Assembly: GCA_035627515.1 (NCBI GenBank)
Contig: DASPLQ010000012.1
Span: forward strand, 970,331 to 1,034,330
Length of the DNA: 64,000 bases
Reading direction: 5' to 3'
Source of the DNA: Vitreimonas sp.
GTDB taxonomy: Bacteria; Patescibacteriota; Microgenomatia; UBA1400; PJMF01
How positions within the stretch are numbered: position 1 is the stretch's first letter; every line of letters starts with the position of its first letter. This document shows, one piece after another, positions 32,268 through 64,000 of this stretch. The notes under the pieces were generated by a model. The model had not been told where the DNA came from and did no database searches. It was given only the letters and a program-made list of their open reading frames with translations. Position numbers and translations under genes: made by a program.

Positions 32268-32341
32268 AAAAAAATAAAAATCCAGGAATCCTCAGTCAAT
32301 AAGTTAGTATCTACTTTTTGGAATTTGTAATTTGTAATACT

Positions 32342-34033: not shown

Positions 34034-34068
34034 TAGAATGTGGCGCATACGCATACATAAGGAGAGAT

Positions 34069-34359: not shown

Positions 34360-34365
34360 CGATCC

Positions 34366-38302: not shown

Positions 38303-38329
38303 TTCCCTGTGTGAAAATAGTATGTTGTG

Positions 38330-39882: not shown

Positions 39883-41523
39883 TTAAGGTGAGTTTGAAGT
39901 AACTTCACCTGAAGGTGTACTTTGATGAGCTAACTCTGTGATATCCCAGACTTGTAAACACGGAGCTTGATTGGGTCGGCAGATGTTTAGCAAGCGCTGC
40001 GAGGGATCTAGTTTTAGATCCAAACGATGGGAGTTAACGACTAATAACACTTGATCAAATTGGCGGGCGCGCTGTTTGAAATTTTCCGGAATGAAGCGCA
40101 CTGGTTGCCCGATACCATCAATAAAAATATTACTTACGTCACGACGATGAAAATACAAGGTCAAACCATCTGGTAAAGTTCCAAAGTAACCTTCCGTAGC
40201 AACAGCTACGGTGTGATCCTGAGATAACGACCGAATTAAAGCCGCGGTTTCTAGTAAACCGTGTCCTGAAGACCATTCATGGAGATATTGAACTTTGTCA
40301 GCTGCCACAAAGGGGGTGGCGTTGGAACTGAAGAGTGCAGGTAACATGAAGTAAAGTGAGGTCATGACCACTTGAGTACACAAGACAGTGACTAGTAATC
40401 CCCCGACTGCTTTTCGAGCAATGTTTCGTGGCTGATTAATGAAACTATCAACAAGGTCTTGAAAGGCTAGTGCGCCAGCCAAAGTAAAAAATAAACTTAC
40501 TGGCATAAAATAGCGGGGATAAACAACTTTACCTAAAAGGGCAATCGGCAAGATAAATGACAGAGCAGACCAAAACAGTAAATGATAGGTTTTTTGGTGA
40601 CGCTTAATAAACAGCCCCGCGACGCTTAATAACAACAGACTAACGCTCAAGTAATGGTAAAAGTATGAAATATAGGTGGAAAAATTGGTGATGGTTTGTT
40701 GCCATTTACCATCAAACACCACTTCTCGCCAAGGATAAAGAAAATCACTGCCACGACTAAATAATTGACTGAAGACGGGAGAAATTTTAAGTGAGGCAAA
40801 AATGACAATGCCTATGCCGGCTGCCACCATCATTTTGGCTAAGAGTACGAGGCGGCTCGACCACGATACTTTCTCTGCCCACCCCGCCCACAATACAAAG
40901 AGTGGTGCAAATAAAATAGCTGGAACCTTGGTCCACAGGCTGAAACCAAAACACACACCAGTCATCGCTATCCAGCCTATGCTGATTCGATCAAAAGTGG
41001 CCACAATAACCTGGACGCTTTTTTTAGACAATGATAATGCTACTGAAGCATGGTGTCCCTGATGGTGATCAGCTAATTTAATCAGACCTACTAAAAGTAA
41101 GCTTAACCAGAGCGTCAATAACCCATCGATGAGGGCCATCCGGTGATGGAAAAACCAGAAAGGCAATATCACAGTGAAGATCATGCCTAGCAGTTGGGTT
41201 TTAGGGCGAGCTTGGAGCAATGATAACAAATATCCCATCACCCCCACCTGCAGAAGGCCAACAGCTACTGAAACAAAACGAGCAGCCCACAATTGATCAG
41301 CAAAGAGATACTGAAAAGGAATTAACAACCACATGAATAATGGTGTTTTGCCATCATTCATTGGGAAAAATAAGTAACGTTGCCAGTCATCAATAATCAG
41401 TTGAGACCAGCGAATATAAATGGCTTCATCAGCAAAGACAGGTAAAGCAGTAAGGTTAATGAGGTGTGTCACTAGATAAATGACAGCAATTAACCCAAAG
41501 ATAGACAGAGAGGCTCTTTTCAC
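39883..41523 (-). CDS. GT-C membrane glycosyltransferase, ArnT/PMT-like (GT39/GT83 family)
   Basis: About 11 transmembrane helices and a C-terminal soluble domain. First-loop DE motif LPVFADEAIYIRW. Confidence 0.6.
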   Translation of the reverse strand: MKRASLSIFGLIAVIYLVTHLINLTALPVFADEAIYIRWSQLIIDDWQRYLFFPMNDGKTPLFMWLLIPFQYLFADQLWAARFVSVAVGLLQVGVMGYLLSLLQARPKTQLLGMIFTVILPFWFFHHRMALIDGLLTLWLSLLLVGLIKLADHHQGHHASVALSLSKKSVQVIVATFDRISIGWIAMTGVCFGFSLWTKVPAILFAPLFVLWAGWAEKVSWSSRLVLLAKMMVAAGIGIVIFASLKISPVFSQLFSRGSDFLYPWREVVFDGKWQQTITNFSTYISYFYHYLSVSLLLLSVAGLFIKRHQKTYHLLFWSALSFILPIALLGKVVYPRYFMPVSLFFTLAGALAFQDLVDSFINQPRNIARKAVGGLLVTVLCTQVVMTSLYFMLPALFSSNATPFVAADKVQYLHEWSSGHGLLETAALIRSLSQDHTVAVATEGYFGTLPDGLTLYFHRRDVSNIFIDGIGQPVRFIPENFKQRARQFDQVLLVVNSHRLDLKLDPSQRLLNICRPNQAPCLQVWDITELAHQSTPSGEVTSNSP

Positions 41524-41581
41524 GGTTATTATTGTACAAGAAGTTGGGTCCAGAAGCGAATTTAATGCTATGATTTAACTC

Positions 41582-43282
41582 ATGTCAAAGCGTGCATGGT
41601 GGATTAGCATTATTTTTATTCTGTGCCTCAGTCTTAGCATCCGTTTTTATCACTTAGGGCAAGTTCCCGTGGGACTGTATTGGGATGAGATAGCGATGTT
41701 GACCGATGCTAAATCGGTTGCCGAGTCCGGTCTCGATATGCATGGCAGGCCCTGGTTTCAAGTGTTATATCCCTCCTATGGTGATTACAAATTGCCGGTT
41801 TATATTTGGTTAGCCAGTCTGATGGTAAAGATATTTGGCATTAGTGAATGGGCACTGCGCCTACCCAGTGCTGTCGCCGGGGTAGCCACGGTAGCACTCG
41901 GTGGTCTCTTGATGCATGAAATCTGGAAATGGTCAGCACACTCTAAACAGACACGTTCGTATGCACCGCTATTTGCCATGCTGATTACGGCTTTAGCGCC
42001 CTGGGCCATTATGTTTTCTCGTACGGGCTTTGAAGGTCATCTGGGACAAGCCCTGTTAGGGTTATCTATCTGGGTAGCTATGAAAGCTACCACAGCTAAA
42101 CAACCCTGGTGGTGGTTACTCGGCTCAGCAGTCCTTGGGGCATTAGCTACCTACACCTACTTTTCAGTGCGTTTTGTCTGGCCGGTAGTAGTGATAGCCA
42201 CTCAACTGTTGGGTAATGAGCATTTATTTACGAAACGGTCAGTTAAAGTTTTATTATCACTAGTGGCAAAAGTGTTCCTTCCGTTACTGGTTTTTGCCGT
42301 GTTGCTATGGCCGATGCTGCGCTCACCTTTATATGCCGATAGCAATCGCTTTCGTTTAGGCACGGATTCGGTTTTAAAAACCGATACCACAATTCACACT
42401 GGCAATTTCTATAAAGAATTAAGTGGCAATAGTATTGTTGATCGACTACTTTTTCATCGGGGAGTATTTATTCTTCAGGCCTTAGCTGATAACTATAGTG
42501 ATAACGTCAGTGATAGCTTTAAATTTATTGTCGGTGACCCTAATTTACGACATGGAACCGGAGAACATGGTCTGTTTTATGGAGTGTGGCTGTTGTTTTT
42601 TGTGGTGGGGTGTTACGCTCTCGCTCGTGATAACAAACGAGGTTTATTGTTGTTGATCGGATGGTGGGTGATAGCTTTGCTTCCGGCTTCAGTTCCAGAA
42701 AACACCCCGCATGCTTTACGGTCGCTCAACGCTTTACTGCCCTTAGTGATTATTTTAGGCAGTGGGGCGATGGAGAGTTGGCAAGGTTTATTAAAGTTTA
42801 AAGTATTAAGTTCAAAATTTAATGATGTAGTCTTAACGTCTCTTTTTGTGCTGTTGTTTTTTGTGGTGCCGAGCGCGTCCTTTTTAGCTCATTACTTCAC
42901 GCAGTACCCCCAAGATTCTGCCACAGCCTGGCAAGATCAGTATAAAGAATTAGCTGTTAAGTTATTTGAGATCAAACGTGATCGTCCGGTGTACGTGTTG
43001 AAATTTGATGATCGGTTTTATTTATGGCTGATGGCCTATGGTCCTTACACAGCACGAGATTTTCATACGTGGAAAAGTGACAATTATCAATTCCGAGAAC
43101 TCGACACTTTTTATTTTGATGTCTATCCGACTATGAGGAGTGAGACACGCTTAGTAGTAGGTGAGGTGGGAAGAATGAGCGAGCTCGAAGAAAAATCAAA
43201 TTTAGTGCTCAAACGCGAAGCGGTGATTTATGATCATGAGGGTCAGCCAAAGTTTATCATTGCTAGTGTTGAGGGATCATGA
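41582..43282 (+). CDS. GT-C membrane glycosyltransferase, ArnT/PMT-like; paralog
   Basis: DE motif GLYWDEIAMLTDA. Polytopic with a C-terminal soluble domain. Confidence 0.6.
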   Translation: MSKRAWWISIIFILCLSLSIRFYHLGQVPVGLYWDEIAMLTDAKSVAESGLDMHGRPWFQVLYPSYGDYKLPVYIWLASLMVKIFGISEWALRLPSAVAGVATVALGGLLMHEIWKWSAHSKQTRSYAPLFAMLITALAPWAIMFSRTGFEGHLGQALLGLSIWVAMKATTAKQPWWWLLGSAVLGALATYTYFSVRFVWPVVVIATQLLGNEHLFTKRSVKVLLSLVAKVFLPLLVFAVLLWPMLRSPLYADSNRFRLGTDSVLKTDTTIHTGNFYKELSGNSIVDRLLFHRGVFILQALADNYSDNVSDSFKFIVGDPNLRHGTGEHGLFYGVWLLFFVVGCYALARDNKRGLLLLIGWWVIALLPASVPENTPHALRSLNALLPLVIILGSGAMESWQGLLKFKVLSSKFNDVVLTSLFVLLFFVVPSASFLAHYFTQYPQDSATAWQDQYKELAVKLFEIKRDRPVYVLKFDDRFYLWLMAYGPYTARDFHTWKSDNYQFRELDTFYFDVYPTMRSETRLVVGEVGRMSELEEKSNLVLKREAVIYDHEGQPKFIIASVEGS

Positions 43283-44913
43283 TGAAAAAGGTGATTAATA
43301 AATACCTAGTTGTAATTGGTTTAGTTTTTTTGATGGCTGCTGGCGCTGGAGTGCGATTTTTTCACTTGGCTACTAATCCAGTGATGTTAAATCGTGATGA
43401 GGCAGCTTTGGCTTATAACGCTTTTTTACTGAAAGAAGCTGGAGTAGACGAGTGGCAACAACCATGGCCATTGGCTTTACAATCATTTGGCGACTATAAG
43501 TTACCCGGATATATATGGTTAACAATTTTATCTTTTGCCGCTTTTGGATACAGTGATTGGGCAGTCAGAGTGCCCGCGGCAGTGGCCGGCACATTATTAA
43601 TTCTTGTCACTTACTGGTTGACTCGTCGCCTAAATTGGGAAAAACACTGGAGCATATTAGCTGCAGCATTGATTGCTTTTTTACCAGTATTTGTGTTTTA
43701 TTCTCGGATGGCTTGGGAAGCAAATGTCAGCCTCCTGCTGACCGTGTTGAGTTTGGGGTTAATTTGGTTTCAGCCTGATAAACGTCTGCATTCTCATCGT
43801 GAAGATTTGGTAGGGACAGGAATTTTATTGTGGTCTGTTTTTACCTATAATACGCCCTTTTTATTGTTACCTTTTTTGATTGTCATTTTGCCATTGCGGC
43901 GAGGTTGGAAACAGCTCGATCGTTGGTTGTGGGTGGTCATGGGATTACTGATTGTCTTTGCTTTAGCTGCAGTTGTTCAATTACCCATTAGTACTCAGAA
44001 AAGTGGTATTACACTTTTCTCTGATCAAAATGTGTGGTTAGCTTCCGTAGAGTATCGCCAACAGTTTACAGGAGTAGCCCAAACGGTTTTAGGTAATAAG
44101 TATGTGTTCTTGGCTCAGTTATTAGCACAAAAATGGTGGGGAAGCTTTAGTCCGCACTTTATGGTCATTAAGGGCGGAGATCATCCTTGGCATCAGTTGC
44201 CAGGATATGCTCACTTTTTCTGGGATAGTTATCTACTAAGCTTAATTGGGGTGGTGACATTGTTTGTGATGACTATTAAAAAAAGTTTGGCAACCTTTTC
44301 CCAAACATTCACTCTTTCTCAAGTTCAATTAAGCCAGGATGGCCTAAGTCTGTATTTATTATTGATTTCATTATTGCCGGCGATTATTACTGTCGATGCC
44401 CCTCATGCCACGCGCAGTTTGTTATTTTTCTTTTTATTAATCATTAATGGAGTGGCTGGAGCACGACACTTAATTAAAGTACTTGCTTCACCTGCTCGAG
44501 AAGGGCAACTATCTTTAGCGATCATTGTAGTATTTATCTTAAGTACTACTGTTCAATTCACCCAGTATTTTGCTCATTATTTGCAGGAGTATCCTCGCCA
44601 AAGTTATTTTAATTTTCAAGGGGGTTACCCAGAGTTAATCACTAAGCTTGACCAAGATTACCCTCACAAAGAAATCGCGATTGTGGATGGGCCAGGGTTT
44701 CAGTATGTGGTGACTGCTTGGTACTTAAAAACGTCACCTCAGGAATTTTTTGATACAATAATTCGCCAGCAGCCAGATAAATTAGGTTTTCGTTATGGAC
44801 AGCAGCTTCAGCAATTTCATTTTATTGCTGATGACGATGATCGTAGTGACAAAGAAGGAATCGTAGTGGAGTGGAATCGTGATAACTCTGAATGGATTGT
44901 GAAGGAGTATTAA
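43279..44913 (+). CDS. GT-C membrane glycosyltransferase, ArnT/PMT-like; paralog
   Basis: ATGA overlap with the upstream gene. DE motif VMLNRDEAALAYNA. Confidence 0.6.
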   Translation: MMKKVINKYLVVIGLVFLMAAGAGVRFFHLATNPVMLNRDEAALAYNAFLLKEAGVDEWQQPWPLALQSFGDYKLPGYIWLTILSFAAFGYSDWAVRVPAAVAGTLLILVTYWLTRRLNWEKHWSILAAALIAFLPVFVFYSRMAWEANVSLLLTVLSLGLIWFQPDKRLHSHREDLVGTGILLWSVFTYNTPFLLLPFLIVILPLRRGWKQLDRWLWVVMGLLIVFALAAVVQLPISTQKSGITLFSDQNVWLASVEYRQQFTGVAQTVLGNKYVFLAQLLAQKWWGSFSPHFMVIKGGDHPWHQLPGYAHFFWDSYLLSLIGVVTLFVMTIKKSLATFSQTFTLSQVQLSQDGLSLYLLLISLLPAIITVDAPHATRSLLFFFLLIINGVAGARHLIKVLASPAREGQLSLAIIVVFILSTTVQFTQYFAHYLQEYPRQSYFNFQGGYPELITKLDQDYPHKEIAIVDGPGFQYVVTAWYLKTSPQEFFDTIIRQQPDKLGFRYGQQLQQFHFIADDDDRSDKEGIVVEWNRDNSEWIVKEY

Positions 44914-44915
44914 CT

Positions 44916-45755
44916 ATGTGGTTATTTTTTGCTCTCTTAGCTGGTAGTTTTTACACCCTTTCTGGTCTAGCGACGCGGTACGTACTCAAAGGCAGTAAGG
45001 ATGCGTGGGCCTTCTCATTTTGGTTTAGCGCGGTGGGAGCTATAGTCAGCTTACCTTTTGCGCTTTATCAGCCCGTTTGGCAACCAAGTACTTTCAGCTG
45101 GGTACTAACGCTGGTGATGGGGGCATTGATCATGCTTCATAATTGGTTAAGCTTTCGGGCTAGCAATTACTTAACCGCTTCAGTCAGTGGAACGATCACA
45201 AAGTTGCGGCTAGTATGGGTCTTTTTGCTCGGTGTAGTTCTCACTCGTGAGCCGTTTTCATTCTTCACTTTAGTTGGTGTACTGCTGACTATAATGAGCA
45301 GTGCTGTCATCTTTGGGACCTTTCGAAAGCTATCAGTGGGTAAGGGCTTAAATCTAGCTGTGGCCGCGACAGTGGTTTACGCATGTATTGTGACCATCAA
45401 CAAAAGCCTTTTTACCAGTTTCAGTCCTGATATTGTTACCTTTTTCATTTTCTTTGTCCCAGCGGTGTTGAATTTACTATTAATGCCCAACTCAGTCAGT
45501 CGTGTCAGCGAGCTCCTCACTAGTGATCGACGCGGTGTGATGTTAGCTTGTGGAACCGGGGCTTTAGCCAACTTGGCCATGGTTCGAGCGTTTGCGTTGG
45601 GTCAAGTCACAGCCGTAGTCGTTATCATCGAAGCCTTTTTGTTAGTGACCTTGGTGGGTGAACACTTTTGGTTGAAGGAGCGCTCACAGGTTTTGGAGAA
45701 GGTTAGCGGTGTGATTCTAGCAGTGTTGGGAGCAATGTTAATTACTCTTAAGTAA
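44916..45755 (+). CDS. EamA/DMT-superfamily transporter
   Basis: Start MWLFF at 44916 with RBS GAAGGAG. Ten hydrophobic helices in two repeats. Confidence 0.5.
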   Translation: MWLFFALLAGSFYTLSGLATRYVLKGSKDAWAFSFWFSAVGAIVSLPFALYQPVWQPSTFSWVLTLVMGALIMLHNWLSFRASNYLTASVSGTITKLRLVWVFLLGVVLTREPFSFFTLVGVLLTIMSSAVIFGTFRKLSVGKGLNLAVAATVVYACIVTINKSLFTSFSPDIVTFFIFFVPAVLNLLLMPNSVSRVSELLTSDRRGVMLACGTGALANLAMVRAFALGQVTAVVVIIEAFLLVTLVGEHFWLKERSQVLEKVSGVILAVLGAMLITLK

Positions 45756-45769
45756 TAGTTGGGATAAAA

Positions 45770-46201
45770 ATGAGAACTCGAATTGTAGTAGTCGGCATCA
45801 TTAAGAATAAAGATAATAAATACTTGCTTTGTAAAATGGCGGAAGATCATGGTGTTTATCCAGGAGAGTGGGGATTAATTGGTGGGGGTGTCGATGAAGG
45901 TGAAGATATTAAGATGGCGTTAGTGCGGGAGATTAAAGAAGAAGCGGGTTTAAAAGTTTTAGAAATGAAGCCACTCTTTTTTGGAGAAGATCGTAAGGTT
46001 AAAAAGTTGCGTCAAGGTGGTGAAGAAGAACAGTATCTGATTTATTTACTATTTGAAGTTATAACCGAGGGAGAGGTCGTTCTCAATGACGAATGGGAAG
46101 AGTATCAATGGTTATCTGCCACAGAAATAGCTGAACTTAACTTGAATAACCAAACGCGTGCTAACCTCCAAAGATACGGGTTAATTAGCGCATCTAACTA
46201 G
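45770..46201 (+). CDS. NUDIX hydrolase
   Basis: Nudix box GGGVDEGEDIKMALVREIKEEAGL. Confidence 0.7.
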   Translation: MRTRIVVVGIIKNKDNKYLLCKMAEDHGVYPGEWGLIGGGVDEGEDIKMALVREIKEEAGLKVLEMKPLFFGEDRKVKKLRQGGEEEQYLIYLLFEVITEGEVVLNDEWEEYQWLSATEIAELNLNNQTRANLQRYGLISASN

Positions 46202-46217
46202 GTATAATGAAAGTACT

Positions 46218-47003
46218 ATGATCTCAGTTGTTTTAGCCACTCATAATGAAGCCAAAAATCTACCACGCTGTTTGGAGGCGGTAAAAGATTTCGCGGATGA
46301 GATTATCATCGTGGATGGTGAGTCAACCGATGAGACGGTGGCCATTGCCAAAACGTTCAAAGCCAAGGTTATCAAGACTACTAATAAAGCTAATTTTCAT
46401 ATCAATAAGCAAATGGCCATGGATGAGGCACGTGGCGAGTTAGTGCTGCAGCTTGATGCTGATGAAGTGGTTGATGATGATTTGGCACTTTTTATTCGTG
46501 ATCTCCACCATCATTTACGTGAAGATAATGATCACTATAACGCGTGGTTGATTAAACGCAAAAATTTATTTCTCGGGCGATTTTTATCTAAAGGTGGTCA
46601 ATACCCCGATCCCGTCATTCGTTTGTATCGGTCCGGCAAAGCTTGGCTGCCTCAAAAAGACGTTCATGAACAAATGCACGTCGAAGGGCAAACAGGTTGG
46701 GCTGAAGGTCATTTGACTCACTATGCCAACCCAACTTTCGAAGACTACATGCGCAAGTTTAATACCTATACCAGTTTTAAAGCCGTACAACTAGATGAGG
46801 CTAAGCTTTCAATTAATCTACTCACTGGCCTTCATTACTTGGTGTGGAAACCCTTTGCTACGTTGTTTATGATTTTTATTCGTCATAAAGGTTTCGTGGA
46901 TGGGGTACCCGGTTTTGTATTTGCATTGATGAGTGGCTTGCACCATGCCTTTGCATATTTGAAGTTATGGGAAATTCGGGAAAAACGTCGTTTAAAATTA
47001 TAA
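46218..47003 (+). CDS. Family 2 glycosyltransferase (polyprenyl-phosphate sugar transferase-like)
   Basis: ISVVLATHNEAKNLPRCL...IIVDGESTDET and a DAD motif (QLDADEV). Confidence 0.7.
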   Translation: MISVVLATHNEAKNLPRCLEAVKDFADEIIIVDGESTDETVAIAKTFKAKVIKTTNKANFHINKQMAMDEARGELVLQLDADEVVDDDLALFIRDLHHHLREDNDHYNAWLIKRKNLFLGRFLSKGGQYPDPVIRLYRSGKAWLPQKDVHEQMHVEGQTGWAEGHLTHYANPTFEDYMRKFNTYTSFKAVQLDEAKLSINLLTGLHYLVWKPFATLFMIFIRHKGFVDGVPGFVFALMSGLHHAFAYLKLWEIREKRRLKL

Positions 47004-47009
47004 GCACTT

Positions 47010-48062: not shown

Positions 48063-48064
48063 TT

Positions 48065-48493
48065 ATGATTAAAGCCACGTTGGGATTTATTTTCTCTTCT
48101 GACCATACTGAAGTATTGTTAATTGAGAAACAACGACCAGCATGGCAGGTCGGAAAACTAAATGGGTTAGGAGGCAAGTGCGAGGGTGAGGAAACTGCAG
48201 TGGCTTGTATCAGCCGGGAAATTCAAGAAGAGTGTAATTTAACTATCTCTTCTGACCGGTGGTCAGAAGTAGCAGAACTAAAATGGCAAGAGTGGGAGGT
48301 ATCAGTTTTTACGGTAGTGTTGAAAAAGCATGAAGATCGCGGGCTCACTTCACTGACAGATGAAGTAGTCAGCTGGTGCCCGGTCAATAACTTACCATCC
48401 ACTATATTGAGCAATCTGAGCTGGTTAATCCCGTTGGCTTTAGATAAACTACACGAACCTACCTTAAAGAAGGTGATTGTCACCTATGATTAA
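48065..48493 (+). CDS. NUDIX hydrolase (second copy)
   Basis: Nudix box GLGGKCEGEETAVACISREIQEECNL. Confidence 0.6.
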   Translation: MIKATLGFIFSSDHTEVLLIEKQRPAWQVGKLNGLGGKCEGEETAVACISREIQEECNLTISSDRWSEVAELKWQEWEVSVFTVVLKKHEDRGLTSLTDEVVSWCPVNNLPSTILSNLSWLIPLALDKLHEPTLKKVIVTYD

Positions 48494-50192: not shown

Positions 50193-50193
50193 T

Positions 50194-51859: not shown

Positions 51860-51868
51860 AAGGATAAT

Positions 51869-52777: not shown

Positions 52778-52803
52778 TAACAGTAGTTAGCTGAAGGTGA
52801 TCA

Positions 52804-55605: not shown

Positions 55606-57230
55606 AAGTTATTCCAACTATAGAGGGTGCCAGGCCAGATTGAAAAAGGATTGTCATCAAGAGGATAATGATCTAGGTATACTTCTTTAGTTAGGTTTTG
55701 TTCAGCAAACTCTCTGATATCAGCAGGCAAACTGGAGTCGTCGATCCAGATAAAACCCAGTGGATACAGGCTGATGACTCGCTGGAGATCTTGCAGATTG
55801 GTAATTACTTTTACCCGAGGATCAGCCGTTAGTAATTTTTCTCCAGCTTGGTTAAGCGTAAAAACAGTTCGTCGTTCAATGCCATTCACAAGACCTTCAT
55901 CATTTTCCCAGCGCACCATGTAGAGCGGTTGATACTCATCACCCAAATACCACCGAGCTCGATCCCCCCAGGTATCAACCATGGCTACGGGTGTAGAAGG
56001 CTGAGCAGTAATTCGTTGCAACACGGGTTGATACACTTGATCATAATCAAGTAAAGCAATTTCGCGCATTTCATGATTGATTGAATAAAATGCTTTGGGT
56101 TTCAAGACAAAGGTATGGCCGTTAGCAATGATTACGAGCGTTATTGCGAGTGGTGTCAGCCAGCTAAGGCGGGTTAAAAGCGCGAACTGTTTTTTTGTTA
56201 CAGTAGCCTTGACACTAGAGAGCGTTTTGTCACTTAATTGATCGCTTAAAAATACAATTGCCGCAGCTGCATATAAATAGAGTAACGGGAAAATAGGTAA
56301 TAAATAACGTGTGACATATGGCGCAAACAAAAAGAAGAAAAAACTTAAATATGCGCCACCCATCACTGCGGGAAGTAGATGTTTTTTAGGTTCACTGACA
56401 CAGCTTAACAACCATCCAAACACCGCTAATAGGCCCATCACTCCGTGGACTCGCCATAAAAATGAGTGGTAGTACCAGACATTATTTGACAGGCCATTAG
56501 TGGCTAGGAATTGAAAGCGACCCGCGATTTGTGCCAGCGTGCCACTTTGCCATGCCACCACTAAAAGTATGGGAAGTACCAGCCATAACAACTTATGTTT
56601 TAAAACATAGGTAAAAGACTGACGATAAAAAAGTGCCAAATGAAGACCTAAAGCAGCCAGAGCTAGCAAGAAGCTGGTATGAGTAATGGCACCCAGTAGT
56701 CCTAAGCCCAGTACCCCTGCTAGTGAGATGACTTTGCCACGATTAGTCTTAGCCGATAATAACTGCCAATAACACCATATCAGCGATAACAAAATGACTT
56801 GTTGAAAAGTATAACTGCGGCTTTGTCGGGACCAGGCAATCAAAAAGTAAGAACACACAGTCAACAAGGCCCCGCTCAGTCCAACTCGAGGATCATTCCA
56901 TAACTTTTTGCCAACTGCCCAGACTAAGCCGGGCACTAAACATCCCAGTAGTACTGCTGGCATTCGAGCCATGGTGATAGAAACACCACCGAGCTTAAAA
57001 GCCAATGCCACCAAGGCATAGTAGGTGAAGTTATGTGGCTCTAAGATAGCAGGCCAGTTGGTGAGTACTCCCCATCCATGATCTAAAATAATTTTAGCTT
57101 GGGCGACACTTGAAAATTCATCTACCCACATCGGTGTGTTTAAGTTGGGAAATCGGTAAAGCGCCGCTAAAATTATTAATCCAAAAATAAGTACAATTTC
57201 CATCCAGGAATTTTTCAACCACTTTATCAT
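55602..57230 (-). CDS. GT-C membrane glycosyltransferase, ArnT/PMT-like; paralog
   Basis: DE motif TPMWVDEFSSVAQ. Polytopic with a C-terminal soluble domain. Confidence 0.55.
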   Translation of the reverse strand: MIKWLKNSWMEIVLIFGLIILAALYRFPNLNTPMWVDEFSSVAQAKIILDHGWGVLTNWPAILEPHNFTYYALVALAFKLGGVSITMARMPAVLLGCLVPGLVWAVGKKLWNDPRVGLSGALLTVCSYFLIAWSRQSRSYTFQQVILLSLIWCYWQLLSAKTNRGKVISLAGVLGLGLLGAITHTSFLLALAALGLHLALFYRQSFTYVLKHKLLWLVLPILLVVAWQSGTLAQIAGRFQFLATNGLSNNVWYYHSFLWRVHGVMGLLAVFGWLLSCVSEPKKHLLPAVMGGAYLSFFFFLFAPYVTRYLLPIFPLLYLYAAAAIVFLSDQLSDKTLSSVKATVTKKQFALLTRLSWLTPLAITLVIIANGHTFVLKPKAFYSINHEMREIALLDYDQVYQPVLQRITAQPSTPVAMVDTWGDRARWYLGDEYQPLYMVRWENDEGLVNGIERRTVFTLNQAGEKLLTADPRVKVITNLQDLQRVISLYPLGFIWIDDSSLPADIREFAEQNLTKEVYLDHYPLDDNPFSIWPGTLYSWNNL

Positions 57231-58261
57231 AATGCTGCTGCTTCCCAGTAGGTTTGGTTACTCTCTTTATAATCCACGTTTCTGACTTTAATCATACCTT
57301 TATTTTGATCTGGCCCCACTGAAAAGATAATTTTATCATCTTCCCATTTGAGGATTCTGACGGGTTTATTATCCAGCCAAACTTGCGCGTCATTATATTG
57401 AGCATCACCAAAGTTTTTACCGAGGGCGGTAACTTGTTTCCACGAACTTCCTCCATACGGGGACTCAATTTTCATAATAATGGGTGTTAAATGAAGAGGA
57501 TCAGTGGTAGCTATAAAGGCAACTTGCATGCCGATCAACAACATGCCAATCGTAGCGCCAACAATAATATGTGGCTTACGGTGTGTAATATGTGTGATTA
57601 AGGTAGCTAAAGCTAAAGTGACTAAGCTGAAGAGTAAAAAGTGTGCCTGATATTGACCAGTATAGAACCAGTAAAAATAAGCTGCTCTTTCGATAAAAAA
57701 ACGGTGGAAAAAAAAGAAGTGGTGTGAGAGTTGAGCGGTGGTCAGGAAGATATAAATACCCCACAGTAAAGGCAAAGGGTAGCGGTTATATAAGTTCAAG
57801 AAGGCTCGCTTAAGTTTTAAGAGTGGTGACTTTAATGGCCCTAATAAAGTGATGACAATTTTACTTAAGATAGGAAAGTCAGCGTGTAAGGCTTGTAAGT
57901 CGCAAATGAGCTCGGTAGGAGCATGAAATGTTTGAGAGTTATTGCTCGTACTCATCAACGCTGCTTGTTTTAATGAGAAAAGACTGAGGAAAATCAAACC
58001 CCAGCTAAACAATGTTTGAGCAAGTGATAGGTTTCCATACAATAGCACAGGCACCACCGGTACAAAACAAGCTATGGCTAAACCTAGGCTTAAGTGTTCT
58101 TCTGTTCTATGAACAATCAGCAATAGTACCCATAAGCTCAAAACTATGAAGGTGGCAATGATAGGATAACTTAAACTTCCCCAAATATTGAGTAATACCA
58201 GCAGTAATATAGTCATTAAAACAGGAAAACGGAGCAAATGGGCGGTATTAAATACTTTCAT
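57227..58261 (-). CDS. Polytopic membrane protein with a C-terminal IPT/TIG-like beta domain; possible polymerase/ligase-type component
   Basis: About 9 transmembrane helices. C-terminus VTALGKNFGDAQYNDAQVWLDNKPVRILKWEDDKIIFSV is IPT/TIG-like. Confidence 0.35.
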   Translation of the reverse strand: MKVFNTAHLLRFPVLMTILLLVLLNIWGSLSYPIIATFIVLSLWVLLLIVHRTEEHLSLGLAIACFVPVVPVLLYGNLSLAQTLFSWGLIFLSLFSLKQAALMSTSNNSQTFHAPTELICDLQALHADFPILSKIVITLLGPLKSPLLKLKRAFLNLYNRYPLPLLWGIYIFLTTAQLSHHFFFFHRFFIERAAYFYWFYTGQYQAHFLLFSLVTLALATLITHITHRKPHIIVGATIGMLLIGMQVAFIATTDPLHLTPIIMKIESPYGGSSWKQVTALGKNFGDAQYNDAQVWLDNKPVRILKWEDDKIIFSVGPDQNKGMIKVRNVDYKESNQTYWEAAAL

Positions 58262-58262
58262 A

Positions 58263-59426
58263 TTAGATCAGGGTATTAAAAGCTGTTTGGTAAATGTTTC
58301 GCCAGTCATAAGCTACCGCCAGTTGTAGAGCATTTTTTCGCCATGTTTTGAGTTGCTCTCGGTTGCGTAAGACCTTAATGATGGTTTGTGCTAACACTTC
58401 ACTATCATCTTTAATGACCACACCACACTCATTTTTTTCCAGAACTGCACCCATATACGTTACATTAGTGGTGATGATGGGTAAACCACAGGCCAAGTAA
58501 CTCTTCATCTTTGAAGGATCAGCATATTTCGACCAGCGATCAAAGGTTTTGTTGTACATCGCTATAGCCAACTCACCAGTACACAACTTTTCTTCTACCT
58601 GATGATGATGAGCTAGATATCCTGTAAATTCAACATGTTCATTAATCCCTAGTTCGATTGCTAGCTCATTTAAAAATTGTTGTTGCTGGCCACTGCCGAT
58701 GACCGTCAAGGTCACATCAGGGATTGTTTTTAGTACTCTTGGTAAAGACCGTAATAAAGTCTCGACACCTTGGTGTGGTGCCAAACCACCGGCATAAACA
58801 ATGTGATGCTTTTTCCGAGGTTGTGTGAGGTAATCTTGAATCCGATCTAACCACACTCCAATTGAAACAACTACTTGCCGAGGATACTCTGCTTGGGCGA
58901 GACCACGAATTTTTTCTCTGCCTTCCGCAATCCGTGGCGAGACATTCCAGGTCATATCGGCGTGTTTCACACACCATTTATCCAGCCAGTGATAGCCTTC
59001 ATTAAGCCAGTGTTGTGAGAACCGCTCCGGAGTGAAATCAATAGTATAGTACACAACTTTTTCCACCAACCCCAACTTGCGCAAACACAAACCAGCCAAC
59101 ACACTTAAGTTATTAAGTCCCACCATCACTTGCCACTTTTGTTGGGTACTGATGATCCACCATAGTGTCAAAAAGAAGTCAAAGATAAATGAGACTGGTG
59201 GTGTGAAAAATGGCAATTTAAAATTTGATTGGCGAGTTAAATGCTGGTGGTGGTATTGTTTAAGTAATGAACCCTGGGGTTGGGCTTCAGCTAACAACGG
59301 GTGACTAATCACTAACAACTGTTCAAGTTTCTTTTCCAGTAAAAATTTTTCTAGGTCAGCAAACGGCACGGTACCTAAGACGTGAGAGACAATAATAACT
59401 TTATTAAAAATTAACGGCGTCATCAT
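58263..59426 (-). CDS. Family 4 (GT-B) glycosyltransferase
   Basis: C-terminal YLACGLPIITTNVTYMGAVLE region, plus a Rossmann-like N-domain. Confidence 0.6.
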   Translation of the reverse strand: MMTPLIFNKVIIVSHVLGTVPFADLEKFLLEKKLEQLLVISHPLLAEAQPQGSLLKQYHHQHLTRQSNFKLPFFTPPVSFIFDFFLTLWWIISTQQKWQVMVGLNNLSVLAGLCLRKLGLVEKVVYYTIDFTPERFSQHWLNEGYHWLDKWCVKHADMTWNVSPRIAEGREKIRGLAQAEYPRQVVVSIGVWLDRIQDYLTQPRKKHHIVYAGGLAPHQGVETLLRSLPRVLKTIPDVTLTVIGSGQQQQFLNELAIELGINEHVEFTGYLAHHHQVEEKLCTGELAIAMYNKTFDRWSKYADPSKMKSYLACGLPIITTNVTYMGAVLEKNECGVVIKDDSEVLAQTIIKVLRNREQLKTWRKNALQLAVAYDWRNIYQTAFNTLI

Positions 59427-61558
59427 GATTTTTTTCGCTGCATCTTTAAATACTGAACTGGATAATAACTTAGTAAAAAAGTGAGCGATATTACAAGTGT
59501 CGCATAACTAATACTCGAGCCCAACGTGCTGACAGCTTGAGGTTGAAAGTAGAGCGTGTAGGTGGCAGTATCGGCAGCCGGAATTTTCCACCCATTGTAC
59601 GTTTCGCTAAAGCGGTGGTGAGTGGATTGTTTTGGTGAAGTTTTATTTAAAAAGGACCAAAAATATGAGCCTGATAAATCGCCTGGGTATAACACCCACT
59701 TCGGGCTGTAAGGCAAGTTAAATGCTAGTGTACCGCTTTGATGAGTAGGGACAGTAATCACATACTTGCCTGTAGCTACCTGTTGATACTCCAAAGGTTG
59801 TGAAGACTCACTATCACTGTGCCAGCTAAAAAGGGCTGGTGGTTGATAGTTTTCAACAACAGCTTTAATTTGATAAATATCAATATCTTTGGCTACGTCG
59901 ATGGTGGAAATGTAGCCTTCATCTTTCGGAGCAGTGTAGTGTCCTAGCCAGCTTAAACGCGGATCCTGTTTCAGGAGTTCATTAAGATACCCAGAATTTG
60001 ATAATAAATTATTATAAATAACCAAGGTATCGACGCCATATTTGGTGAGCTCATCGATAGTTTCTGGTAAAAAAGGATCGTTGATTTTGGCGTAATACTC
60101 GGCGGTAACTGGTTCGAAGGGGTTCACACCACTAGCGAGGTTTTTTTGATGAATGATTTGACCAATCAACTGGTAGGTTTGAGGAAAGCCATTATCTTTA
60201 GCTCCTAACTGCATGGGATAAGGAGCGATGGTTTTGATACTAGGGTTGTTCTTGATTGGCTCATAAAGCTCAGCTGAGTGTTCTAAATTTGTTTGGCGAT
60301 ACCAAGTGCCGTCCATCGTTAGACCTAAGCTAAAGCACAACAACCCAATTACCAGCCACCCCGTGGTAATCAGCCACTCACCATGACGACGTTTTTTGAG
60401 AAAGTGTGCGAGGTCAGTGAGACTAAAACTCACCAGCAAACCTAAAAATAAGGGGGCGCAAATTGCTAGTCGAGCTACACCGCGGAACATACCAAAAAAA
60501 GTGAAGTAAAGCTGGTTACTCCAAAATAAATGTTCAGTCCGCCCTGAAAGTACGATACACAATAATAAGCATAGCGTTATGACATACTTGACGGGGCGTT
60601 GACGGCTTAAATATAAACCGGCTAAAGTTATGCCGAGCGGTAAGATGTACAGCAAACTACTATAGCCTTTCATCCATGAGTACAACCAAGAGCTTTCTTG
60701 CTGGGCATAGTAATACCATAATGGAAGTAATTCATTTTCAGGTGTCGAGGCGCGGCCGGTTTGGGCTGCTTTTTGTGCATCAAATAAATATAAATTACCT
60801 AAAATAAAGTGACTATTGAGCGCCATGGTCATCAATAGTAATGCTGCGTAATAAACAAAGAAGGTACTTAAACGTTGCTTCCAATTTAATGGTTGATAGA
60901 ACAACACAAAAATTACTGAAAACATGCCGCAGAAAAAGGCATAATAGGGATCAATTTTAAAAAGTATGGCAAAACTTAAACTGGAGAGGACTAAGAAAAA
61001 TGCTGATCGTCTTTCCATGAAATACACAACCGTCAACAAAAAATAGGGAATAAATTCCACATGATTAATGGACATTTGTCCTCTGCCCATCAGCACTACA
61101 TATGGTGAAAAGGCATACAGAAGACCGGCAATAAAGCTCGCTCGAGTATGTCGAGTAAAGTGCCATGCTAATAAAAAGGCTCCCAATCCGGCCAACGGAT
61201 AGACAATTAATGACGATAGGTTAGTGATAAAGACTAAATTTTGCCAACTAAATCCCAAGACCTGGTGGAGAATCCACGCTTGAAATGAGTAAATTAAATT
61301 ATTGATGGGAGCATAGGCGATATCATACCCAAAAGGGTGAGCCACCACGTCAGCAACATCATAAATAAGTCGATCGGTGGCAATTTTTACTAAGTACCAG
61401 TGATACCACAGACCGCCATCGGTATCGACGTCTGGCATCGCATACCTTGTCCATAAATAAGGTAACCGGTGTTGATATAACAACACAGTGATCACCACAT
61501 AGCCACAAAAAGCAGACACAAATGAAAAGAGAGGAGAAGACAGGATTTTTTTAAGCAT
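59423..61558 (-). CDS. Large (711 aa) polytopic membrane protein with a C-terminal soluble domain; putative GT-C/YfhO-like glycosyltransferase
   Basis: At least 13 transmembrane helices. First loop PDVDTDGGLWYHWY. Topology like the other GT-C genes here. Confidence 0.4.
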   Translation of the reverse strand: MLKKILSSPLFSFVSAFCGYVVITVLLYQHRLPYLWTRYAMPDVDTDGGLWYHWYLVKIATDRLIYDVADVVAHPFGYDIAYAPINNLIYSFQAWILHQVLGFSWQNLVFITNLSSLIVYPLAGLGAFLLAWHFTRHTRASFIAGLLYAFSPYVVLMGRGQMSINHVEFIPYFLLTVVYFMERRSAFFLVLSSLSFAILFKIDPYYAFFCGMFSVIFVLFYQPLNWKQRLSTFFVYYAALLLMTMALNSHFILGNLYLFDAQKAAQTGRASTPENELLPLWYYYAQQESSWLYSWMKGYSSLLYILPLGITLAGLYLSRQRPVKYVITLCLLLCIVLSGRTEHLFWSNQLYFTFFGMFRGVARLAICAPLFLGLLVSFSLTDLAHFLKKRRHGEWLITTGWLVIGLLCFSLGLTMDGTWYRQTNLEHSAELYEPIKNNPSIKTIAPYPMQLGAKDNGFPQTYQLIGQIIHQKNLASGVNPFEPVTAEYYAKINDPFLPETIDELTKYGVDTLVIYNNLLSNSGYLNELLKQDPRLSWLGHYTAPKDEGYISTIDVAKDIDIYQIKAVVENYQPPALFSWHSDSESSQPLEYQQVATGKYVITVPTHQSGTLAFNLPYSPKWVLYPGDLSGSYFWSFLNKTSPKQSTHHRFSETYNGWKIPAADTATYTLYFQPQAVSTLGSSISYATLVISLTFLLSYYPVQYLKMQRKKS

Positions 61559-61559
61559 C

Positions 61560-62627
61560 TCAAACTTTTGTCACAACTTTTGATTCATCATAGCTACGCA
61601 AATCGGGATGATAGCCAAGAGACTTCCGCAGATAATGATACACAATTTGACCGGCGGTGAACAGCGAAAGAGGCCAATGAATCAAGTACTGCCAATCGCG
61701 ACGGGTCACACACAGCCATAATGTATCAAGCAGCGGCAATATTAATGATAGGGTATATGGTAAATAAAGATATTTTTTATATTGTAACCAGCTTGGTTGA
61801 AACTTATCACGACCGGTGAAGCCGGATTGGCCCATTTGGTCTACGTGATAAATATTATTTTTAATTCGCCACCGAATTTTATTGAGATATCGACCTATGG
61901 TTTCTGAGGAGTAATGCAGTAAGCCATCATTTTTAGTCAAAGCAATCGTAGGGGCTTTACTCAGTAATAAATAAAAGAAGTGGGGGATTAAAGCTGGATC
62001 TGTTTGCGTGGCGGGGAAATTAGTTTTAAAAAACTCGGCGTCAATCATACTCCCAGCAGCACACAGTTCAATAATGGGCAGGGCTTCAACCTGGCTAAAA
62101 TCAAACACCACCCCAGTTTTATCTTCATTTTTAATAGGGTAACGCGCGCTCATATGAGTCACAAAATAATCCACACTCTTTGACAAACGATAAATAAAAT
62201 ACGAGAAGGGGTCGCCAAACTCATTAATATACTGATTAGTAATACTAAAACCAGCTGGATTGCGATAACCCGAGCCAATTACGGCATGGACATCAGGAAA
62301 CTGGGTGAAGAAAGCAATTTTATTTTCTAAACTGTGAGAATTTTCGATAACTTCGTCATGATCTAAGTACACAATATATTTACCTTGTGCTTTCAGATAG
62401 CCGAGAAATTTAGCGTAGACGGGTTCGGTGCGTGGATTAGGAATCAGTTGACAACCATATTTTTTACCGAGGGCGGGTGTCTCATCGCTGGAACCACCAT
62501 CTAATAGTAAGATCTCCATTTTTTCTCGAGGCAGTGATTGTTTTTGTAAGGCATCTAAAACCATAGGGAGGGTTTTCATGGAGTTGAAAGTAGCGATGAT
62601 GATAGTGACAAGGGGTTTATTTGACAT
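61560..62627 (-). CDS. Family 2 glycosyltransferase with C-terminal transmembrane helices
   Basis: VTIIIATFNSMKTLPMVLDAL...LLLDGGSSDET. DHDE motif (YLDHDEV). Confidence 0.7.
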   Translation of the reverse strand: MSNKPLVTIIIATFNSMKTLPMVLDALQKQSLPREKMEILLLDGGSSDETPALGKKYGCQLIPNPRTEPVYAKFLGYLKAQGKYIVYLDHDEVIENSHSLENKIAFFTQFPDVHAVIGSGYRNPAGFSITNQYINEFGDPFSYFIYRLSKSVDYFVTHMSARYPIKNEDKTGVVFDFSQVEALPIIELCAAGSMIDAEFFKTNFPATQTDPALIPHFFYLLLSKAPTIALTKNDGLLHYSSETIGRYLNKIRWRIKNNIYHVDQMGQSGFTGRDKFQPSWLQYKKYLYLPYTLSLILPLLDTLWLCVTRRDWQYLIHWPLSLFTAGQIVYHYLRKSLGYHPDLRSYDESKVVTKV

Positions 62628-64000
62628 GAGTTGCCGACCAATAGTATCGAGTTATTATGTCATGAATACCCGTGATCAGGGTGTGGAGTATGACACAAAT
62701 CATAATAATGCTCAGGGGAATCATCGGCAGGTAACCGCGCGAGCCAATGACTGTACCATGAAAAAAGGCGGACAAAAAGATAAAAGTATGTAGAGGCAAC
62801 CACCAACTCAGGCTGGGGATGTGCCACCACTTTTTGGTTATCAAGAGAGGTAGAGGGAAAAGTAAGGTTGCCCACAAATAAAATGTATGGAGAGGCTTTT
62901 GATATGTGCTTAACCATTTCAATAAATCTTGCCTCTCCCACGAGAAGGTGGAGCCAGTATAAAAACCGGTTAGTGATTTAATTAAATGTGGTTTCAAAAT
63001 GTGAAGATGGCTGCTAATGTATTCCCAAGCCAGTCCTGCCAGGTGATCATCAATTTCTGTATAGGCTTGAGCAACAGGAATACCGGCGGCTCTTTTTTCC
63101 GCCATCATGGCTTTGGCGCCTTGTGGCGAGCTATACCAGTCGTAAAGTTGTTTAGACTCAGGTGTAGGATAGGCGGTGAAATGGGTGAACTCCATGAATA
63201 ACTGCCCACCTGAAGCAGCTGAGAGCATAAAATGTCGGGTATGGGCATAATTCCTAATCATCCATGTAGTCATCAAACCTAAAGTAATGACGATAATCAG
63301 ACCAGACCAAAGGATGGCTTTGTTTTTTTGATGGGTAAAGTAACGTTGCCCGATGGCTAAGACCATATACGGCAGAATAAAGATTAAGGTGTTTTGGCGG
63401 CTAAAAATGGTGAATACACACCACCCGAGTGCTGAGCCGAATTTCCACCAGTAATATTTCTGGTGAGGTTCGGTTTTTAAAACCCGATTAAAATGATAGA
63501 CCGTAGCAATAATGCCTGCTGTGACAATAATGTCTACGTTGCCCATCATCGCGCCATAAAAAAGTAAAACCGGATTGAGGATCACTAAGCTAAAACCGAT
63601 CATTCCAATTGACCAATGAACAAATTCTTTAAGCAATAAATAGGTATACAACGCAATCAAGCAGACTGAAAGATAGTTATAAAAAAGTAATAGGCGAGGA
63701 TGATCATAGATGAGTCTTCCCAGAGAAATGAGCGAAGAAAAAGCGGGCAGACGCATCACTTCCGGGACATAATCATTAAATGTCTTAGGATCTAAGTAGT
63801 ACATGTTGACTACGTACTTAGCAGCAAAACCCTGACCTGTCAGCTGACTATCAGAATAATCTTTATATTGATCGACGTCTTGCCCACACCAAGTATCGGG
63901 TGCTGTGACAAAACACGAGTAAGTGTTAGTGAGGGTCGCACTGTACCACAGTACAGCGGCAAAAATAATTAGAAAAGGTGCAGCGGTTAGGAAATGGTGA
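62617..64000 (-). CDS. Polytopic membrane protein, GT-C-like; the 5' end probably extends past the window edge
   Basis: The frame stays open upstream of the M at 63804 to position 64000, encoding a transmembrane helix HHFLTAAPFLIIFAAVLWYSATL. So the true start is probably outside the window. Confidence 0.45.
   Translation of the reverse strand, partial: HHFLTAAPFLIIFAAVLWYSATLTNTYSCFVTAPDTWCGQDVDQYKDYSDSQLTGQGFAAKYVVNMYYLDPKTFNDYVPEVMRLPAFSSLISLGRLIYDHPRLLLFYNYLSVCLIALYTYLLLKEFVHWSIGMIGFSLVILNPVLLFYGAMMGNVDIIVTAGIIATVYHFNRVLKTEPHQKYYWWKFGSALGWCVFTIFSRQNTLIFILPYMVLAIGQRYFTHQKNKAILWSGLIIVITLGLMTTWMIRNYAHTRHFMLSAASGGQLFMEFTHFTAYPTPESKQLYDWYSSPQGAKAMMAEKRAAGIPVAQAYTEIDDHLAGLAWEYISSHLHILKPHLIKSLTGFYTGSTFSWERQDLLKWLSTYQKPLHTFYLWATLLFPLPLLITKKWWHIPSLSWWLPLHTFIFLSAFFHGTVIGSRGYLPMIPLSIIMICVILHTLITGIHDIITRYYWSATHVK

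Follow-up and report, generated by a model that had tools for sequence, protein, structure and literature searches.

A conserved seven-gene core and a variable distal part in a GT-C-rich Patescibacteria locus, probably for cell-surface sugar chains

The last 24 kb of a 64,000-nucleotide stretch of contig DASPLQ010000012.1 (positions 970,331 to 1,034,330 of the forward strand; hereafter the window, in whose numbering coordinates are given) hold a real and dense set of genes for cell-surface sugar chains in a bacterium of the Candidate Phyla Radiation (CPR, or Patescibacteria). According to the list of open reading frames (ORFs) and the window sequence, 20 reading frames fill positions 39883-64000 almost without intergenic space. 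One minus-strand gene (39883-41523) is followed by twelve plus-strand genes (41582-54090), most of which overlap or touch their neighbours, and by seven minus-strand genes (54043-64000), the two convergent blocks sharing 48 bases at 54043-54090. Eight of the products are assigned to the GT-C glycosyltransferases: five are ArnT/PMT_2-like, one is PTPS_related-like, one is PIG-V-like and one, from a rare family, resembles STT3 and AftD. The initial annotation of this DNA had described a locus for surface glycoconjugates with many enzymes of the lipid-linked-sugar class, which is supported here, and Pfam also recovers all of its three GT2 enzymes (one with two domains), two GT4 enzymes, SDR (short-chain dehydrogenase/reductase) epimerase, Wzx flippase, EamA transporter, GNAT acetyltransferase and two NUDIX hydrolases. 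The Pfam scan covered 40 ORFs of the window, with hits reported at E <= 0.01; the cut-offs that matter below are 26.1 bits for PMT_2 (PF13231, GT83-like), 22.7 bits for PMT and 22.4 bits for Mannosyl_trans2 (PF04188, GT76). Structures were predicted for two GT-C proteins only, those encoded at 48477 and 59423, and the other six were assigned through Pfam PMT_2, PMT or Mannosyl_trans2 or through profile-profile comparison.

Seven plus-strand genes form the core of the locus. Specifically, two ArnT/PMT_2-like GT-C genes, CA (41582-43282, 566 amino acids (aa), PMT_2 35.4 bits) and CB (43279-44913, 544 aa, PMT_2 32.8 bits), are followed by a GT2 enzyme (46218-47003, 261 aa, Glycos_transf_2 74.9 bits), a GT4 enzyme of GT-B fold (47010-48062, 350 aa, Glycos_transf_1 92.3 and Glyco_transf_4 60.7 bits), the PTPS_related-like GT-C (48477-50192, 571 aa), the PIG-V/Gpi18-like GT-C (50663-51859, 398 aa) and, as the final core gene, an NAD-dependent, GalE-like SDR sugar epimerase/dehydratase (51869-52777, Epimerase 208 bits). 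Relatives of the marker gene 48477 occur at 327 places in species-representative genomes (one genome per species), and the proteins of the locus were compared with 82 fetched related loci, 38 of which are long enough to judge gene presence. The core is colinear in most of the 82, with the commonest order identical in 25, and each core gene is present in 31 to 38 of the 38 long loci (CA, CB and the GT2 in 37 each, the SDR in 36, the GT4 in 34 and the PIG-V-like gene in 31). The GT2 is the best conserved of them, at a median identity of 61%; the GT4 has a median of 53%. In one relative, L002, the operon follows dnaX-ybaB-ham1, and the same three precede it in the window (32318-34962). Because the same gene order recurs across related Patescibacteria loci, and in a conserved neighbourhood, the core is an old, vertically inherited operon and not acquired DNA. 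A literature search without subscription journals found no published description of this operon in Patescibacteria, and the core unites familiar enzyme superfamilies in an operon whose architecture is conserved but uncharacterised.

All informatively named loci among the relatives (80 kept) belong to Patescibacteria, under the names Pacebacteria or Paceibacterota, Woesebacteria and Microgenomates. Proteins identical to those of the window are deposited from a 1.41-Mb contig of a metagenome-assembled genome (MAG) labelled Vitreimonas sp., an alphaproteobacterium (HYD35453.1, VD999_05275-05330), although the informatively named homologues and the syntenic loci are all Patescibacteria. Related records, many of them ENA MAGs, otherwise carry the labels 'uncultured Pseudomonadales', 'Pseudomonadales bacterium' or 'bacterium', and the Vitreimonas and Pseudomonadales labels are probably taxonomic mislabels.

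Four further genes interrupt the core. They encode an EamA/DMT-family transporter with ten transmembrane helices (44892-45755, EamA 68.6 bits over two repeats), a NudI-like NUDIX hydrolase (45770-46201, NUDIX 69.8 bits), a second NUDIX hydrolase (48065-48493, NUDIX 33.2 bits) and a GNAT acetyltransferase (50194-50673, Acetyltransf_1 65.2 bits), the last of which is inserted between the PTPS-like and PIG-V-like genes, which relatives carry side by side or as a fusion. The EamA and GNAT genes occur in none of the 82 related loci and each NUDIX gene in one, and all four were inserted in this genome, or in its closest kin, alone. An NCBIfam scan of the locus proteins found no family above its cut-off other than NudI, which the first NUDIX protein matches at 134 bits against a cut-off of 95; the SDR stays below the GalE cut-off, at 206 against 262 bits.

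The ArnT/PMT_2-like proteins make up the largest group of GT-C enzymes. CA and CB are 26% identical to each other (BLASTP E 5e-27) and, together with CC in the distal part of the locus (55602-57230, minus strand, 542 aa, 33.4 bits), are the only proteins above the Pfam PMT_2 cut-off. Two others join them at the profile level: C0 (39883-41523, minus strand, 546 aa) and P0156 at the window end. The divergent C0 reaches a sub-threshold 19.3 bits with Pfam PMT and 21.6 bits with a paralogue profile built without it (leave-one-out). Its gene is divergent in orientation from the core operon and not part of the conserved core, and an orthologue was found in only one of the 82 loci (L054, 50% identity). 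CC, in turn, was found in five loci, with orthologues in L002 (40%) and L085 (43%).

Five ArnT/PMT paralogues had initially been proposed, on the strength of a DE motif in the first loop and of the HDGENH stretch of 48477. The four proteins with DE keep this place, while 48477 belongs to a different family and P0156 becomes the fifth member. Similarly, two further GT-C-like proteins and a PIG-V-like protein had been listed beside them; all three are indeed GT-C, for a total of eight, but the gene at the window end is itself PMT_2-like. In a MAFFT alignment, the DE of C0 (D32-E33), CA (D35-E36), CB (D40-E41) and CC (D37-E38) shares a column with D31-E32 of E. coli ArnT, directly after the first transmembrane helix, and the proposed correspondence with the catalytic loop of ArnT stands. 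A profile alignment furthermore sets the K of GDYKLP in the window proteins opposite K61 in the YFEKP of ArnT; the K-P of this motif is kept in three of the four directly aligned proteins, CC lacking the K. Conservation of the DE was counted over 125 orthologues extracted from the 82 loci, at 30-50% overall identity: the D is present in 62 of 63 CA and 56 of 57 CB orthologues, the E in all 63 and all 57, and the full DE in five of five CC orthologues. Among solved structures, the PMT_2-like paralogue profile matches one only, C. metallidurans ArnT (5ezm, E 4.6e-5). Like ArnT (GT83), all five ArnT/PMT_2-like proteins have an acidic first-loop residue directly after the first transmembrane helix and a C-terminal extracytoplasmic domain, but the similarity is remote (20-26 bits).

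P0156 (62617-64000, minus strand, 479 aa in full) is open to base 64000, and 19 N-terminal residues lie outside the window. A word-indexed homologue search with this protein found none, and an exhaustive HMMER search found 28 relatives. Since its family profile aligns with the PMT_2-like profile at an hhalign probability of 97.2% (E 4e-11), and since Pfam PMT_2 is matched by 7 of 24 family members, P0156 is classed, by sequence comparison, as a divergent ArnT/PMT_2-like GT-C. Its first-loop motif is G-x-D60-x-D-Q-Y64, with D60 at least 90% conserved in the family. One family member carries a GtrA/DPMS transmembrane domain (E 2e-22), which hints at a tie to polyprenyl-phosphate sugar handling.

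Neither of the two modelled GT-C proteins (571 and 711 aa) has a Pfam match of its own at the E-value used, and neither family has a credible relative among the PDB sequences, whether searched by single sequence or by profile; the best PDB matches of both models, on the other hand, are GT-C enzymes almost throughout. For the 571-aa protein, the assignment comes from an AlphaFold model (pLDDT 86, pTM 0.88), which Foldseek matches in the PDB to AftD (E 8e-5, TM-score 0.45), STT3, ArnT, AftB, PglB and Pmt4, and from PF10131 (PTPS_related), which is found on 26 of 120 listed close homologues (40-50% identity). The protein is 571 aa long by ORF and 568 aa in the GenBank annotation, whose start, judging by this length, is probably 48486. 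Its first outer loop has an invariant T38-H39-D40-G41..N43-H44..R47, and within HDGENH D40 is found in 43 of 43 and E42 in 33 of 43 orthologues. HDGENH is the signature of a separate GT-C family, distinct from the ArnT/PMT DE motif. In the model, the C-terminus forms a beta-sandwich domain followed by a terminal transmembrane helix.

The 711-aa protein (59423-61558, minus strand), which has no NCBIfam match either, was modelled at similar quality (pLDDT 88.6, pTM 0.88). Its Foldseek matches are led by STT3 (7oci_F, E 2e-9, TM-scores 0.49/0.54) and include AftD, DPY19, PglB, AglB, ALG12 and ArnT, and its family comprises 35 homologue clusters in 5.8 billion proteins. The first-loop motif is P42-D43-x-D45-T-D47-G, with D43 and D45 invariant in the family, and the modelled extracytoplasmic part consists of alpha/beta and beta-sandwich domains before a terminal transmembrane helix. 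Because the WWDxG motif is absent (the sequence has no WWD), the protein is, by this measure, not an STT3-type oligosaccharyltransferase. A place among the STT3/PglB/AglB enzymes (GT66) was rejected on this ground and for want of an STT3 Pfam match, the likeness being structural only. Judged by their models, the 571-aa and 711-aa proteins are both GT-C enzymes and neither is specifically ArnT/PMT-like; between the two families, hhalign gives a probability of 10% (E 0.003), a weak colinear alignment that is no proof of close paralogy.

The PIG-V-like protein matches Mannosyl_trans2 at 24.9 bits, against the cut-off of 22.4, over model positions 52-233 of 443, a marginal and partial match; its relatives are named Gpi18-like by JGI. 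Its motif W-A-N-F-D69-G70-V-H-Y..G80-Y81 retains D69, G70 and Y81 in 47 of 47 orthologues. Many relatives carry the PTPS-like and PIG-V-like parts in a single protein of 925-950 aa (L002 10001-12814; P0005, P0006, P0029, P0031, P0033 and others), and this fusion suggests that the two act together, as a working pair. The family or fold of each enzyme is observed, and so is the conservation of an acidic first-loop residue, which follows the first transmembrane helix in the CA, CB, CC, PTPS-like, PIG-V-like, 711-aa and P0156 families.

The distal part of the locus begins with a Wzx/MOP-family flippase (52804-54090, plus strand, 428 aa, Polysacc_synt 73.9 bits), a semi-conserved accessory gene, and continues on the minus strand. 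From the window end inwards, P0156 is followed by a GT2 enzyme with hydrophobic C-terminal helices (61560-62627, 355 aa, Glycos_transf_2 58.9 bits), the 711-aa GT-C, a second GT4 enzyme (58263-59426, 387 aa, Glycos_transf_1 80.2 bits), a polytopic membrane protein of 344 aa (57227-58261) with a weak C-terminal IPT/TIG-like domain (TIG 18 bits, below the cut-off), CC and, as the final gene of this operon, the two-domain GT2 (54043-55605, 520 aa, two stretches matched by Glycos_transf_2). The Wzx gene occurs in 6, the two-domain GT2 in 9 and CC in 5 of the 82 related loci; 57227-64000 has no counterpart in them, and its families are rare (35 and 28 relatives).

The Paceibacterota MAG locus L085 holds a module in the order GT2, 711-like GT-C, GT4, TIG protein, PMT_2, Wzx and two-domain GT2, which is convergent with a PIG-V-like gene and 43-58% identical to the window proteins. 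The locus L086 has the trio of GT2, GT-C and GT4 with the GT-C duplicated, and both loci adjoin amino-sugar synthesis genes. Specifically, orthologues of GT2 61560 are 57-58% identical and lie directly upstream of the 711-like gene in both, an arrangement thus seen in three genomes; GT4 58263 has orthologues in L085 (45%) and L086 (39%), and the two-domain GT2 has a 48% identical one in L085. We read the distal part as a variable, lineage-restricted decoration module joined to the conserved core, by analogy with O-antigen and core genes, and occasional exchange of its genes is possible. Two details of these loci may be added. At L086 10001-14316, which belongs to a genome of 1.6 Mb, the tandem 711-type GT-Cs (715 and 723 aa) stand with the same GT2 and GT4 partners and with amino-sugar genes, and a large Wzy_C protein lies at the locus end. 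At L085 14047-16008, a longer TIG protein occupies the position that 57227-58261 has between GT4 58263 and CC, without detectable sequence similarity to it.

Among the cytoplasmic-type enzymes, GT2 46218 has the GT domain of GmaR (E 6e-15) and SunS as its best PDB relatives and is predicted to be a nucleotide-sugar-dependent enzyme of the cytoplasmic side. For GT2 61560, a PDB search gave generic GT2 matches only, with no specific similarity to ArnC, and its architecture and linkage make it a candidate maker of a lipid-linked sugar donor. A comparison of E. coli ArnC, ArnE and ArnF with the proteins of the locus gave no significant similarity, and for this reason neither a donor synthase nor an Arn-type flippase is claimed; EamA 44892 might possibly be a flippase for lipid-linked sugar. 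At 8947-9666 (plus strand), 30 kb upstream of the cluster, lies a gene for a 239-aa RmlA/GalU-like sugar-1-phosphate nucleotidylyltransferase (NTP_transferase, 230 bits) that could supply nucleotide sugars; in L002, an NTP_transferase gene lies inside the cluster instead.

Taken as a whole, the locus is likely one for an envelope glycan, with a conserved core and a variable part, that uses GT-C chemistry at the outer face of the membrane. In such a scheme, the GT4 and GT2 enzymes would first prime a lipid-anchored acceptor at the cytoplasmic face with nucleotide sugars, among them one that the SDR has epimerised. The intermediate, polyprenyl-phosphate sugars or both would subsequently be flipped across the membrane by Wzx and possibly by EamA, and the supply of donors is an assumption within this scheme. 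At the outer face, successive GT-Cs would draw on polyprenyl-phosphate donors, every enzyme adding a sugar or linkage of its own, with the invariant first-loop Asp after the first transmembrane helix (in DE, HDG, FDG or DxD) as the presumed catalytic base. The variable part would then add a strain-specific outer decoration, much as an O-antigen is carried on a lipopolysaccharide (LPS) core.

What this assembly line would build upon is less certain. We give about even chances to a non-protein acceptor, which would be a lipoglycan or wall-linked glycopolymer assembled like mycobacterial lipomannan and lipoarabinomannan (LM/LAM) and arabinogalactan. A protein acceptor comes second, as a clearly lesser but serious possibility, and any other acceptor has a smaller chance still. 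A polymer or lipoglycan is favoured over protein O-mannosylation because the proposed scheme has between four and eight different GT-Cs working one after another and because the hallmarks of GT39 are absent. It is favoured, furthermore, because AftD and AftB are the closest structural neighbours of the 571-aa enzyme, because both modelled enzymes have C-terminal beta-sandwich domains, because a relative of P0156 carries a fused GtrA domain, and because the Pfam scan of 40 window ORFs detected neither a phosphoglycosyl transferase (PF00953, PF02397) nor Wzy. The beta-sandwich domains presumably resemble the carbohydrate-binding modules of AftD and the Emb proteins.

In mycobacteria and corynebacteria, LM/LAM and arabinogalactan are made by cytoplasmic GT4 enzymes such as PimA and PimB and then by GT-C enzymes (PimE, MptA/B, AftA-D, EmbA-C) that use polyprenyl-phosphate sugars. 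The present locus shares with these pathways the combination of cytoplasmic GT-A/GT-B enzymes with several GT-Cs in series, as well as extracytoplasmic beta-sandwich domains on a GT-C core. In contrast to them, none of its sequences is detectably orthologous to a Pim, Mpt, Aft or Emb protein, its genes lie in one compact operon of a CPR bacterium instead of being scattered, and PIG-V-like and PTPS_related-like members are included. A similar mixture holds for the eukaryotic GT-C pathways of the endoplasmic reticulum lumen (PIG-V/Gpi18, ALG3/9/12, STT3, PMT), which likewise bring PIG-V-, PMT- and STT3-like folds together, presumably on the non-cytoplasmic side after flipping. Here, however, the PIG-V match is marginal, WWDxG is missing and homology reaches the superfamily level only; no phosphatidylinositol or glycosylphosphatidylinositol (GPI) biosynthesis genes were seen in the window.

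Two other bacterial systems offer partial parallels. Gtr-type and Gram-positive transmembrane glycosylation combines a GT2 (GtrB/CsbB), a GtrA flippase and a GT-C (GtrC/YfhO) (PMC8035078). The placement of GT2 61560 directly upstream of the 711-aa GT-C and the GtrA domain on a P0156 relative recall this arrangement, but the window has no GtrA gene and far more GT-Cs than the one per system, and the locus is not demonstrably a Gtr-type system. Wzx/Wzy loci for O-antigen or capsule similarly combine Wzx, several GT2 and GT4 enzymes and sugar-nucleotide-modifying enzymes, with a conserved beside a variable part. Unlike them, the present locus has no initiating phosphoglycosyl transferase, Wzy or chain-length regulator, and its Wzx lies outside the core. 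Within the 40 window ORFs scanned with Pfam this is not a complete Wzx/Wzy locus: of phosphoglycosyl transferase, Wzx and Wzy, Wzx 52804 alone is present.

Several points weigh against a lipoglycan or glycopolymer built in this way. The activities and polyprenyl-phosphate donors of the GT-Cs are predicted from family and fold, the Foldseek TM-scores are moderate (0.34-0.54) and support a place in the GT-C superfamily rather than in a given sub-family, and PTPS_related (PF10131), in GT-C clan CL0111, is a family of unknown function (PMC7801869). The outer-face placement of the loops is a prediction (a hydropathy/positive-inside script missed helices), and no DPM1/GtrB/ArnC-type polyprenyl-phosphate sugar synthase was identified in the window. 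Co-transcription would be expected from reading frames that overlap or abut; a promoter and terminator scan gave counts not above those of shuffled sequence. Three enzymes, moreover, point to proteins as acceptors: the structures closest to the 711-aa protein are those of STT3 (its best match), DPY19 and PglB, all enzymes with protein acceptors; the closest relatives of GT2 46218 in the PDB are the protein and peptide glycosyltransferases GmaR and SunS; and GT4 58263 has weak SdgA/GtfA-type matches in NCBIfam.

These three belong to the case for protein O-glycosylation, in which PMT_2-like GT-Cs would move polyprenyl-phosphate sugars onto Ser/Thr residues of secreted or surface proteins (S-layer, pili or (SP)n-linker proteins), with the other transferases elongating or pre-assembling the glycan. 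The DE loop and the PMT_2 and PMT family matches are compatible with this explanation, and the window encodes a suitable protein with an (SP)6 linker at 6307-7671. Protein O-mannosylation had been suggested at the outset, but no GT39 hallmark was found: no protein reaches the Pfam PMT (PF02366) cut-off, which only 39883 approaches, and none has PMT_4TMC or MIR at E <= 0.01, so that membership of GT39 was rejected. In Actinobacteria, O-mannosylation is not known to need more than a single Pmt, whereas the operon here conserves a series of four GT-Cs from three families, and the 711-aa protein lacks the features of an oligosaccharyltransferase given above. A link to the (SP)n surface protein, also proposed initially, is no more than a guess, given that 32 kb and a set of housekeeping genes separate its gene from the cluster and that the operon in relatives adjoins dnaX-ybaB-ham1 and not surface-protein genes. 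Set against these points, protein O-glycosylation is a tenable minority explanation.

A separate question is that of origin, since the whole 24 kb, or at least 54043-64000, might be a recently acquired genomic island. As the initial annotation had observed, 54043-64000 is AT-richer, with the lowest GC content of any 10-kb block (41.9% against 43.6% for the window), and the absence of 57227-64000 from the 82 loci, its rare families and the frequent exchange of variable glycan loci between strains would fit an acquisition. The GC deviation is only about 1.6 standard deviations from the mean, however, the tetranucleotide correlation with the window (0.88-0.93) is that of other segments, and AT-rich codons are expected for the hydrophobic residues of membrane proteins; the proposed compositional check thus found a low-GC block but no foreign signature. 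No integrase, transposase or flanking repeat genes are found among the ORFs, and tRNA-Gln (38329-38400) sits 1.5 kb outside the cluster. The colinearity of 41582-52777 rules out horizontal acquisition of the core. Furthermore, L085 also has the distal module next to the core and converging on it, with 43-58% identity, which argues for an old linkage of the two. An island is accordingly improbable, and the idea survives weakly for 57227-64000 only.

Least probable is an ArnT-type modification of lipid A or another membrane lipid with a single cationic or neutral sugar for antimicrobial-peptide resistance: ArnT is the only solved structure that the paralogue profile matches, the DE...K-P pattern resembles the ArnT signature, and an EamA transporter (presumably of the same Pfam family as ArnE/ArnF) adjoins two ArnT-like genes, but no equivalents of ArnA, B, C or D or any other arnABCDEF gene accompany them, the EamA gene is missing from all 82 related loci, several jointly conserved GT-Cs would be superfluous for a single-sugar change, and no LPS genes were seen in the window of a bacterium from a group thought to lack LPS. 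With no arn genes beside them and with paralogues that are separately conserved, modification of lipid A itself was rejected.

The lipoglycan or glycopolymer reading can be taken one step further, although this extension is itself unlikely to be right. The core would then be an outer-face assembly line for a lipid-anchored glycan that corresponds, in bacteria, to anchors of the GPI or LAM type. Its PMT_2-, PTPS_related- and PIG-V-like GT-Cs would construct this glycan by a pathway that appears in no paper found and is characteristic of a large Patescibacteria lineage. If true, it would provide a first function for the PTPS_related family and define a major surface molecule of small-genome bacteria that might mediate their attachment to other cells.

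The cell envelopes of CPR bacteria are little known, and many of these organisms, with their minimal genomes, are thought to live attached to other cells. Eight lipid-linked-sugar transferases are encoded within some 24 kb of a contig of roughly 1.4 Mb, and most of the related loci examined preserve the order of seven of the genes. Both observations indicate that a surface glycan is of importance to the lineage, and the operon offers a concrete, testable handle on it. The locus also places PTPS_related and the bacterial PIG-V-like proteins, both of them GT-C families about which little is understood, in a genomic context. Even should the pathway prove ordinary, what remains is a corrected annotation, with eight GT-Cs in a conserved core and a variable part instead of an acquired island. 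The result is not so much a surprise as a well-supported annotation, and it offers a defined, widely conserved target to specialists of the CPR envelope and for work on the orphan PTPS_related family.

Elsewhere in the window, four adjoining genes are predicted to encode surface, secreted or membrane proteins. A predicted surface protein of 1358 aa (2213-6289, plus strand) has a lamin-tail domain and a weak SpaA-like match, and the (SP)6-linker protein at 6307-7671 (plus strand, 454 aa) also contains fn3, a Gly-rich stretch and a hydrophobic C-terminal region. The adjoining products of 637-1506 (predicted secreted) and 1549-2208 (a 219-aa membrane protein) have no Pfam match. At 24851-26725 (plus strand), a class II tRNA synthetase of the Asp/Asn/Lys type (tRNA-synt_2 and anticodon OB) carries a C-terminal tRNA_edit (YbaK-like) domain, a fusion of which we know no earlier example. 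The 544-aa product of 36262-37896 (plus strand) matches carbohydrate phosphorylase over model positions 423-584 of 713 only and may be a truncated or divergent glycan phosphorylase. Lastly, between tRNA-Gln and the glycan cluster, a response regulator gene (38523-39203, plus strand) converges with 39160-39819 (minus strand) in an overlap of 44 bases, and the 219-aa product of the latter looks by eye like a histidine-kinase fragment without its N-terminal membrane/sensor region.

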